Shown: positions 21,460 to 23,450 of the stretch, one piece after another
How positions within the stretch are numbered: the stretch's first letter is position 1
How the letters are laid out: the number at the start of each line of letters is the position of its first letter
Assembly (NCBI RefSeq): GCF_036507355.1
Contig: NZ_AP027877.1
Length of the DNA: 64,000 nucleotides
Origin: Escherichia coli
GTDB lineage: Bacteria > Pseudomonadota > Gammaproteobacteria > Enterobacterales > Enterobacteriaceae
Direction: 5' to 3' (one strand)
Notes under the pieces: generated by a model
Told to the model about the DNA's origin: nothing
The model's database searches: none
The model's input: the letters and a program-made list of their open reading frames with translations, nothing else
Made by a program: the position numbers and the translations under genes

Positions 21460-22224
21460 TCAGTTCAGGGCTTTCTTCAGATGTTCCGCCAGCTCGGCAA
21501 TGGCCTCCGGCGAATCGTTATCGAGAATGATGTGCTTACGTTCTGTTTGCGGCGGTACGCGAATGCCGGTCAGTTCAGCAAGTGGTGCGCTCTGGCTCCA
21601 GCCAATATCACTTGCCTGCCACTGATTTACCGGTTTTTTACCCGCGCCGAGAATGGCTTTCATCGAAGGAATGCGTGGCACGTTAATATCGGAGGTGACG
21701 CAGAGCACGGCTGGAACAGAGAGTTCAATAACTTCAACGTTATCTTCAAGCGTGCGTTCAATCACCAGTGTATTTCCCTGACGCTGAATAGCACTCACTG
21801 CATTAATCACCGGAAGTTGCAGAATTTCTCCGACCAGCAAGCCAACCTGCTGGGCATAAAGGTCGCCGGAACCTTCACCAAAGATCAGTAAATCGAAGCC
21901 GATCTTTTCAACTGCTGCCGCCAGCGCTTTTGCGGTATCGAGAGGCAGTGCATGTTCAAGTTGCGCATCCTGCACCAAATACAGGCTGTGCGGCCCGCGA
22001 GATAGCACGTCTTTGCGCACTTTCGAGTTCTGCAACAATGAGCCGCCAACGGTCAGCGCGGCTATCTCATCGTCATCTGTTGCAAGCTGGCTTGCAGCTT
22101 CAATGGCATTGAGATCGAACTGGCTGATTTTGGCGTCGGCATTGTCGAAATTCAGGGTGTATTCTGGAGTGACAACAATGTCCTGTTCTTCAGGCACCAG
22201 CTTAAAGCAGGTTATTATTTTCAT
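21460..22224 (-). CDS. ydiQ: Electron transfer flavoprotein beta subunit (FixA-like)
   Basis: 254 aa from MKIITCFKLVPEEQDIV...; track ORF extends 33 codons upstream. Confidence 0.85.
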   Translation of the reverse strand: MKIITCFKLVPEEQDIVVTPEYTLNFDNADAKISQFDLNAIEAASQLATDDDEIAALTVGGSLLQNSKVRKDVLSRGPHSLYLVQDAQLEHALPLDTAKALAAAVEKIGFDLLIFGEGSGDLYAQQVGLLVGEILQLPVINAVSAIQRQGNTLVIERTLEDNVEVIELSVPAVLCVTSDINVPRIPSMKAILGAGKKPVNQWQASDIGWSQSAPLAELTGIRVPPQTERKHIILDNDSPEAIAELAEHLKKALN

Positions 22225-22538
22225 GATTTCTCCTGTGAGTCGCATACGGAACCATCTCCGATGGAAGGTAAAAATGGCCTGAAAATAGTGTGCGATAGCG
22301 GTGCGGGGTTTTCGACGGAGCAAGCTGTTTTCCTTGCCAACAATCTTGCAAAAAAATGCGATCGCTAAAACAAAAGTGCAATTTGCGGCAATATAGTTAT
22401 TCCATGACCGTACAATCTTGCATTCAGGGTAAATAATCTTGTTTAGCTCTCGCTAAACGCGGTTGTATAACCGCAATACACGCCGTATTTTATCCGGCAT
22501 ATATTGTTTTTGCTTGCTCATGGAATAGGGAGGTTGTC

Positions 22539-23450
22539 ATGTATCAACGCTGTTTTGATAATGCCAGTGAAACGCTGTTTGTCGCCGGTAAAACGCCACG
22601 GCTTTCACGTTTTGCATTTAGCGATGATCCAAAATGGGAGTCTGGACATCACGTTCATGACAATGAAACCGAGCTGATTTACGTCAAGAAAGGGGTGGCA
22701 AGGTTTACCATCGATTCTTCGTTATATGTCGCGCATGCAGATGATATAGTGGTGATAGAACGCGGCAGGCTGCATGCGGTGGCCTCTGACGTTAACGATC
22801 CGGCAACGACGTGTACCTGTGCGCTGTACGGCTTTCAGTTTCAGGGGGCTGAGGAAAATCATCTACTGCAACCGCATTCTTGTCCGGTAATTGCCGCGGG
22901 GCAGGGAAAAGAAGTCATTAAAACCTTATTTAATGAGCTAAGTGTGATTTTGCCGCAAAGTAAAAATAGCCAAACATCTTCGTTATGGGATGCATTTACC
23001 TATACATTAGCAATTCTTTACTACGAAAACTTTAAAAATGCTTATCGTTCGGAGCAGGGGTATATTAAAAAAGATGTTCTGATAAAAGATATTCTTTTCT
23101 ATCTGAATAATAATTATCGCGAAAAAATCACTTTAGAACAGTTATCGAAAAAATTTCGTGCCAGCGTCAGTTATATTTGCCATGAATTTACCAAAGAGTA
23201 TCGTATTTCCCCAATTAACTATGTTATTCAACGGCGTATGACGGAAGCAAAATGGTTACTCACTAATACTGAATTATCACAGGCAGAGATCTCCTGGCGT
23301 GTGGGTTATGAAAATGTCGATCACTTTGGCAAACTGTTTTTGCGCCATGTCGGCTGTTCACCCAGCGATTACCGCAGGCAATTTAAAAACTGTTTTGCGG
23401 AACAAGAAATCCTATCTGAATTTCCTCAACCGGTAAGTCTTGTTGGATAA
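22539..23450 (+). CDS. ydiP: AraC/XylS-family transcriptional regulator
   Basis: 303 aa with C-terminal AraC-type HTH; divergent from ydiQ. Confidence 0.85.
   Translation: MYQRCFDNASETLFVAGKTPRLSRFAFSDDPKWESGHHVHDNETELIYVKKGVARFTIDSSLYVAHADDIVVIERGRLHAVASDVNDPATTCTCALYGFQFQGAEENHLLQPHSCPVIAAGQGKEVIKTLFNELSVILPQSKNSQTSSLWDAFTYTLAILYYENFKNAYRSEQGYIKKDVLIKDILFYLNNNYREKITLEQLSKKFRASVSYICHEFTKEYRISPINYVIQRRMTEAKWLLTNTELSQAEISWRVGYENVDHFGKLFLRHVGCSPSDYRRQFKNCFAEQEILSEFPQPVSLVG

Follow-up and report, generated by a model that had tools for sequence, protein, structure and literature searches.

The divergent araC-araBAD region of Escherichia coli has two AraC half-sites, araI1 and araI2, with a distal half-site at araO2. 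At melR-melAB, tandem MelR sites activate the catabolic operon and a single site, R, represses melR, while at the marboxes of MarA, SoxS and Rob one AraC-family domain works from either orientation at different promoter distances (class I versus class II). The FoxR boxes at foxA of Salmonella, CGCATAG-N14-CGCATAG, lie at -62/-56 and -41/-35 with 21-bp periodicity, and the XylS repeats at Pm of Pseudomonas putida lie at -70/-56 and -49/-35 (PMC9804782). Here we describe the spacer between the divergent genes ydiQ and ydiP in a 64,000-nt stretch of E. coli DNA (assembly GCF_036507355.1, contig NZ_AP027877.1; hereafter the window). This spacer carries three copies of a conserved box, one (Q) near ydiQ and a tandem pair (P1 and P2) near ydiP, which are most likely a previously undescribed operator of the AraC-family protein YdiP, which would control the ydiQRST-fadK operon and its own gene.

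The ydi locus resembles araC-araBAD in that a regulator with a cupin-type sensor is divergent from a catabolic operon, two co-oriented half-sites lie 21 bp apart, the proximal one being predicted here to reach the -35 region, and a further half-site stands isolated (araO2 there, Q here). Unlike in ara, the strong tandem adjoins the regulator's own promoter, and it is the distal Q that stands at the promoter region of the operon. From locus to locus the distance between Q and P1 varies (72-354 bp), and the box is not related in sequence to the ara half-sites. The likeness to melR-melAB is that several similar sites, here putative ones of YdiP, are spread across a divergent spacer, where they would serve both promoters and one may overlap a core promoter, as in mel; the ydi layout is, however, mirrored. 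MarA, SoxS and Rob may be a relevant precedent for the inverted orientation of Q, and of a candidate fourth box Q', at ydiQ. These proteins are monomers that use single sites and have no sensor or dimerisation domain, whereas YdiP has a cupin domain and the boxes occur in pairs of 20 or 21 bp.

Together with ydiF and ydiO, ydiQRST-fadK has been proposed to act in anaerobic beta-oxidation of short-chain fatty acids, and the Salmonella ydiQRSTD genes have been described as an anaerobic butyrate beta-oxidation pathway that is of benefit in gut colonisation. A 2022 review of fatty-acid degradation found no evidence for FadR or CRP control of fadK, noted conflicting data on anaerobic induction and reported no regulator. 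YdiP was listed as an uncharacterised AraC-family regulator (Ishihama 2016), and its published targets are cold-shock genes only, with no shared motif resembling the boxes. Neither the box nor any regulation of the ydiQ/ydiP spacer was found in the literature searched (RegulonDB and RegPrecise were outside that search).

Conserved boxes in the ydiQ/ydiP spacer

A scan for YdiP with one genome per species gave 40 loci, 38 of them usable, and the Salmonella locus was added through the protein database. The taxa comprised Escherichia (several species), Citrobacter, Kosakonia, Serratia, Symbiopectobacterium, Brenneria, Dickeya, Prodigiosinella and Yersinia. Word counts and spacing figures refer to 36 non-redundant spacers, the information content of the block upstream of ydiQ to 16 genus-level representatives, and promoter scoring to 15 representatives. 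Gene order is the same in all 38 usable loci and in Salmonella, with ydiQ and ydiP divergent and ydiO convergent on ydiP. The spacers range from 314 to 911 bp and are mostly unalignable between clades, and protein identities across the loci are 58-89%.

An unbiased word count placed the 8-mer ATCTTGCA at the top (36/36 spacers), followed by AATCTTG (35/36). With a 15-nt matrix derived from the collected box sites, against which the spacers and the window were scored in bits, exactly three strong matches were obtained in 37/38 spacers and in Salmonella, all on the plus strand. Those of the window are:

22338 to 22352, plus strand: box Q, CAACAATCTTGCAAA, core ATCTTG at 22343-22348, 20.7 bits; the ydiQ-proximal box, followed by a conserved A7 tract at 22350-22356
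22410 to 22424, plus strand: box P1, GTACAATCTTGCATT, core at 22415-22420, 19.3 bits; the distal box of the tandem upstream of ydiP
22431 to 22445, plus strand: box P2, AAATAATCTTGTTTA, core at 22436-22441, 20.2 bits; the proximal box of the tandem

The box consensus is a core, ATCTTG(C/T)(A/T), with an A-rich 5' flank. Against the 19-21 bits of the three boxes, the next-best match anywhere in the window scores 13.5 bits, and no box above this value stands beside the other genes of the window, including upstream of ydiF, the first gene of ydiFO. Box Q is present, always on the plus strand, in 37/38 spacers and in Salmonella, and its core is invariant in 34/34 collected sites. For P1, ATCTTGCA is essentially invariant (36/36), and for P2 the flank AAAyAATCTTGTTTyG is conserved.

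The P1-P2 pair, which can be written as ATCTTGCA-N13-ATCTTGTT, is present in every locus (38 plus Salmonella). The two boxes are arranged head to tail, all loci having both ATCTTG cores on one strand, and their start-to-start distance is exactly 21 bp, or two helical turns, in 36/36 spacers. The cores are essentially invariant while the 7-nt gap between the boxes varies freely. A metagenome-assembled genome (L035; 58% identity) keeps a diverged P1-P2 pair and is without Q. From Q to P1 the distance measures 72-74 bp in Escherichia, C. amalonaticus and Kosakonia; in Salmonella and the C. freundii group it rises to 241-251 bp, and in the other taxa to 327-354 bp. Helical phasing of Q versus P1 at a 10.5-bp period gave a Rayleigh p of about 0.05 on non-independent data, and was absent at other periods.

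Because the boxes are invariant, with fixed orientation and 21-bp spacing, while the spacers are otherwise unalignable, we are highly confident that they are functional transcription-factor sites and not chance matches. An initial annotation of the window had proposed the repeats in this spacer as operators and had named conservation across Enterobacteriaceae as a check. The direct-repeat boxes bear this out, their orientation and spacing being kept across about ten genera, and their conservation marks them as functional protein-binding sites. The same proposal is not supported for an inverted repeat in the spacer, which is at chance level and whose arms are not kept.

Seen in the window alone, the repeats are less telling. 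The exact 11-bp direct repeat ACAATCTTGCA occurs at 22340-22350 and 22412-22422, as first annotated, and has only these two copies in the window. A third AATCTTG and the inverted repeat GCGGTTgtatAACCGC are likewise present, each with its position corrected by one nucleotide, to 22435-22441 (from 22434-22440) and 22459-22474 (from 22458-22473). Dinucleotide shuffling of the region yields an exact direct repeat of 11 nt or longer in 1.2% of cases (P about 0.012), and 8/406 314-nt tiles of the window (about 2%) have one. Some 7-mer is found in three copies in 2.8% of shuffles, and an inverted repeat with 6-bp perfect arms appears in 47%, which is not above chance. The direct repeats are thus suggestive on single-sequence statistics and weak for a scan of many regions; by such statistics alone they are only a lead, and the inverted repeat is nothing.

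Two differences from K-12 were observed in the strain of the window. It has an A7 instead of an A8 run beside box Q (22350-22356), changing the Q-P1 distance from 73 to 72 bp, and a G/T single-nucleotide polymorphism at 22428, in the non-conserved P1-P2 gap. Just right of the A-tract of Q, at 22358-22365, lies an 8-bp palindrome, GCGATCGC, with a Dam site; its GATC is kept in Escherichia, C. amalonaticus and Kosakonia, and not in more distant genera.

The genes flanking the spacer are:

21460 to 22224, minus strand: ydiQ coding sequence, an electron-transfer flavoprotein subunit and first gene of ydiQRST-fadK, from the annotation of a K-12-like genome
22539 to 23450, plus strand: ydiP coding sequence, an AraC/XylS-family regulator with an N-terminal cupin and a C-terminal double helix-turn-helix (HTH)

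Gene order in the K-12-like genome is fadK-ydiT-ydiS-ydiR-ydiQ on one strand, ydiP on the opposite strand, then ydiO-ydiF. The ydiQ start is the ATG at 22224 (RefSeq annotation; 254 aa) with an AGGAG Shine-Dalgarno sequence, and tblastn alignments of ydiQ begin at residue 1 in every related locus. With this start the divergent spacer is 22225-22538, 314 bp. The 215-bp intergenic region first annotated (22324-22538) was therefore too short; it had been drawn from a TTG-extended open reading frame (ORF) ending at 22323, and the conserved elements at 22282-22331 fall outside it.

A 471-nt query across the spacer has matches in 5,366/5,426 complete E. coli genomes at 95-100% identity, and the matches always cover ydiP (AraC family transcriptional regulator) and ydiQ (electron transfer flavoprotein). 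A single complete E. coli genome matches in the ydiQ third of the query only, and many Shigella and some E. coli entries in protein clusters are truncated YdiP or products fused to IS5 or other insertion sequences (IS). These truncated and IS-fused entries, with the ydiQ-only match, suggest recurrent loss of the regulator.

Two further conserved features lie on the ydiQ side:

22312 to 22357, minus strand: ultra-conserved 46-bp block upstream of ydiQ, containing Q and Q'
22321 to 22331, plus strand: Q', CAAGCTGTTTT, a candidate for a degenerate fourth box; it has the orientation of Q, lies 20 bp to its left and comes from the anchored alignment

Read in the orientation of ydiQ, the block is a T-tract followed by TTGCAAGATwGTTGGyAAnnAAAACAkmTTrnCnnGTCG. 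Its information content is near-maximal from alignment index -6 to +39, its flanks are unalignable, and it is 100% identical from Yersinia to Dickeya. Q' reads CAATCTGTTTT in Citrobacter, Salmonella and E. whittamii and TAATATGTTTT in Yersinia, Dickeya and Serratia. It resembles P2 (AATCTTGTTT) minus one T, and its matrix score of less than 6 bits is below threshold; judged by sequence, it is probably a degenerate fourth box.

Candidate regulators of the boxes

The geometry of the tandem relative to the ydiP promoter bears on the identity of the protein that binds it. Two promoters are predicted for ydiP:

22466 to 22471, plus strand: predicted ydiP -10 element TATAAC, the best conserved -10-like position downstream of the pair, with a predicted transcription start site (TSS) near 22478
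22486 to 22491, plus strand: -10 element TATTTT of an alternative predicted ydiP promoter, with a -35 element TTGTAT at 22463-22468 and a predicted TSS near 22498; the second-best conserved position

With the loci anchored on the pair, TATAAC has a mean of 3.8 bits and reaches at least 3 bits in 10/15 representatives. Counted from the first base of the P1 core, the -10-like hexamer begins 51 nt downstream. It follows the P2 core by 24 nt, its distance from P2 being fixed, and TGnTATA occupies this place in the Serratia/Dickeya/Yersinia group. The alternative promoter has a mean total of 3.4 bits (8/15 representatives) and is missing in Yersinia, its -10 lying 20 nt beyond TATAAC. A generic promoter scan of the region returned one site only, inside ydiP, and the Kim 2012 supplements, consulted for transcription starts, mention neither ydiQ nor ydiP.

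Relative to the predicted TSS near 22478, the P2 core lies at -42 to -37, the P1 core at -63 to -58 and the P2 box at -47 to -33. These predicted YdiP cores (-63/-58 and -42/-37) are close to the published positions of the FoxR and XylS repeats, although the ydi positions are counted from a predicted TSS and the core sequence differs. Tandem direct repeats with 21-bp spacing that extend to the -35 region are a hallmark of the AraC/XylS family, which argues for YdiP, a cupin plus double-HTH member of this family without a closer named family. Moreover, among regulator genes only ydiP is invariably found linked to the boxes. The HTH region of YdiP is conserved at 78-89%, versus 58-81% for the N-terminal sensor domain, and box divergence is greatest in the orthologue that has itself diverged most (L035, 67% in the HTH region), whose locus is without Q. 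Assigning the boxes to YdiP is a reasonable inference only, drawn from the divergent synteny, the AraC-family site geometry and the conservation of the HTH above that of the sensor domain; on these grounds YdiP probably binds them.

Several observations weigh against this assignment. Chromatin immunoprecipitation (ChIP)-exo of YdiP-8myc in glucose M9 gave five weak peaks (gltA/sdhC, uxaB, secG, cspA and yihQ), none of them in the ydiQ/ydiP spacer. When the five peak regions, taken from MG1655 with coordinates converted from U00096.2 to U00096.3, were scanned with the box matrix, no box was found. The supplements of a ChIP-seq study at 15 C, which renamed YdiP 'CsiP', are without any mention of ydiQ. 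YdiP homologues of about 50% identity (47-52%) stand in a different gene context and have no convincing boxes or 21-bp repeats. The promoters are predictions, with two models each for ydiP and ydiQ. Both Q and Q' point against the direction of ydiQ transcription, and the strong tandem is regulator-proximal, the reverse of ara, mel and xyl, where the tandem serves the catabolic operon. At foxA, inversion of the FoxR box abolishes activation (PMC9804782).

The ChIP result can be read in two ways. Either there was too little YdiP, or it was inactive, in those conditions, and the peaks reported at highly expressed promoters have no sequence specificity; or the boxes are not bound by YdiP. If so, they would be genuine sites for an unlinked, Enterobacterales-conserved transcription factor controlling both promoters, which we regard as unlikely but as the strongest of the alternatives. 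The empty spacer in the YdiP ChIP-exo data and the published peaks without a box both fit such a factor, as does an FNR ChIP-chip peak reported for 'ydiP/ydiQ' (Grainger 2007). However, FNR, CRP, FadR, ArcA, IHF and NarL consensus sequences have no match above chance in the spacer, the best matches being equalled in 70-100% of shuffles, and the FNR site predicted under the reported peak lies inside ydiP and not at the boxes. A sigma-54 near-match, TGCCAA-N5-TTGCA (9/11; 9% of shuffles), was rejected, since it is without the essential GG and reads TACCAA in other genera; sigma-54 ChIP-seq places only an intragenic site, in fadK, away from the boxes (Bonocora 2015). The tandem predicted to abut the -35 region and the invariable linkage of ydiP alone to the boxes likewise speak for YdiP over an unlinked factor.

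The FNR-like site inside ydiP lies at 22674-22687 of the window (codons about 46-50), away from the boxes, and reads CTGATttacGTCAA; its K-12 version, TTGATttacGTCAA, is the one predicted beneath the Grainger 2007 peak. The left half of the site is owed to a synonymous Leu codon and lacks conservation in other genera, which makes the site look fortuitous or E. coli-specific. An FlhDC peak from genomic SELEX (systematic evolution of ligands by exponential enrichment) is also inside ydiP (class 'inside genes'), away from the boxes.

Three of the more distant YdiP homologues (L049-L051; 47-52% identity, on GC-rich metagenomic contigs) are encoded directly downstream of a major facilitator superfamily transporter gene. 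One of them (L050) also adjoins fixC/fixX-like and fadK-like genes. These loci are a different arrangement of a related gene set and have no recognisable ATCTTG pair; the distant homologues were taken as uninformative on the boxes.

The inverted repeat and the ydiQ promoter region

The inverted repeat of the initial annotation lies on the ydiP side:

22459 to 22474, no strand assigned: inverted repeat GCGGTTgtatAACCGC (GCGGTT-gtat-AACCGC), enclosing the predicted ydiP -10 element

That this palindrome is the operator of a dimeric repressor covering the ydiP promoter is improbable. Its perfect 6-bp arms do span the predicted -10, the inner GTTGTATAAC (GTTGwAyAAC) is conserved in Escherichia, Citrobacter, Kosakonia and Salmonella, and a variant in some Citrobacter, ACGTT...AACGT, still pairs. 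However, such repeats arise in nearly half of the shuffles, as given above, and the arms pair 6/6 in E. coli only, with 2-5/6 in other taxa. Serratia, Dickeya and Yersinia have no palindrome at this position and retain a TATA-type element only, which fits a -10 and not a symmetric operator. The conserved core of the repeat, TTGTATAAC, falls on the -10-like element that is best conserved at the ydiP promoter. As the arms are not kept outside E. coli and the inner GTTGTATAAC is conserved, this core is best read as the -10 region of ydiP rather than as an operator.

A second perfect palindrome, GTTTAGC-tctc-GCTAAAC, at 22441-22458, follows P2 directly and abuts GCGGTTgtatAACCGC. It is found in Escherichia only, and two such inverted repeats occur in 13% of shuffles. 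A terminator-like hairpin on the minus strand, returned by the promoter and terminator scan, was rejected; it is actually this Escherichia-specific palindrome.

For ydiQ, two promoter models were considered:

22322 to 22351, minus strand: predicted ydiQ promoter, model A, with -35 TTGCAA at 22346-22351, an 18-bp spacer and -10 CAGCTT at 22322-22327; TSS near 22315
22282 to 22287, minus strand: predicted ydiQ promoter, model B, with -10 TATTTT and no recognisable -35; TSS near 22275

Across species, model A gives the highest combined sigma-70 score (mean 4.4 bits). Its -10 is very weak in E. coli and is CATATT in the Yersinia/Dickeya group, and in this model the boxes would overlap the ydiQ core promoter. 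Model B rests on a TAT element found 64 (+/-1) nt from TTGCAA in all genera, though the intervening 18 nt are not conserved; its -10 has a mean score of 1.7 bits. Under model B, Q would lie at -73 to -68, Q' at about -56 to -46, and the block at -83 to -38, as is usual for an AraC-family dimer footprint. A promoter directed leftward and abutting P1, with TATATT at 22390-22395 (minus strand) in E. coli, was rejected, the region not being conserved outside the collinear group.

The loci of Brenneria (L024), Dickeya (L025) and Prodigiosinella (L029) have an extra 200-350 nt between the Q block and ydiQ. This Pectobacteriaceae insert contains a Shine-Dalgarno sequence and an ATG that open a small ORF of about 46-50 codons, ending at the ydiQ ribosome-binding site. 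The N-termini of the encoded peptides are alike (M-x-QQ..SP..LLPA.GI.LN), and the ORF may be an upstream or leader peptide gene without an E. coli counterpart.

The boxes might instead act in RNA, as repeated protein- or small RNA-binding motifs in a long rightward transcript. Their occurrence on the same strand in every genome is what this explanation would predict. It is nevertheless very improbable: the boxes are isolated 8-15-nt elements spaced by exactly two turns of DNA, the sequence between them is free, no segments pair or covary, and there is no conserved rightward promoter upstream of Q. Rfam 15 covariance models gave no match at E up to 1 over 22000-22800 on both strands. Least credible of all are functionless chance matches in an AT-rich spacer: for all the modest single-sequence figures (P = 0.012 for the 11-mer and, for a 7-mer in three copies, 0.028, with about 2% of 314-nt tiles holding a repeat of at least 11 nt), the boxes keep their orientation and 21-bp spacing in about ten genera with unalignable spacers, and protein identities of 58-89% exclude recent horizontal copies.

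Proposed mechanism and significance

We consider it rather probable that the boxes are YdiP half-sites of a conserved cis-regulatory module for the divergent ydiQRST-fadK and ydiP promoters. A YdiP dimer would occupy the P1-P2 tandem, its promoter-proximal subunit abutting the ydiP -35 region, and would activate ydiP in a class II manner, as AraC does at araI1-I2, XylS at Pm and FoxR at foxA, giving positive autoregulation. Binding of YdiP at Q, probably with the degenerate Q' 20 bp away, would control ydiQRST-fadK. Since Q and Q' have the opposite orientation to ydiQ transcription and inverted FoxR boxes abolish activation, ydiQ cannot simply copy the ydiP arrangement. If the ydiQ promoter follows model B, YdiP may activate from about -70/-50; if it follows model A, with the boxes on the promoter, YdiP would occlude it. 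The cupin domain is presumed to sense a pathway metabolite, for example a short-chain fatty acid or acyl-CoA, a ligand that is pure conjecture from the pathway. Although AraC-like looping could join Q to P1-P2, it is unsupported, as the Q-P1 distances vary fivefold and the phasing is not significant.

More tentatively, the physiological YdiP regulon may be local and not that of the ChIP-derived cold-shock genes. Q'-Q and P1-P2 would then be co-oriented tandem pairs with 20- and 21-bp spacing, at which one dimer acts in opposite senses, a short-chain acyl metabolite redistributing YdiP between them. Its own gene would be activated from the class II position, and the ydiQRST-fadK promoter would be occluded, or activated from an inverted upstream position. 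If true, this arrangement would mirror the ara and mel layouts and provide the first regulatory logic for the anaerobic beta-oxidation/butyrate-utilisation cluster.

The boxes are a new operator motif, and the mechanism expected of them is ordinary for the AraC family. A box with fixed geometry supplies a search matrix with which YdiP can be approached as a local pathway switch, its inducer sought and its ChIP-derived regulon re-evaluated. The value of the finding is thus practical rather than conceptual, and lies in its use for de-orphaning a y-gene regulator together with a gut-relevant pathway.

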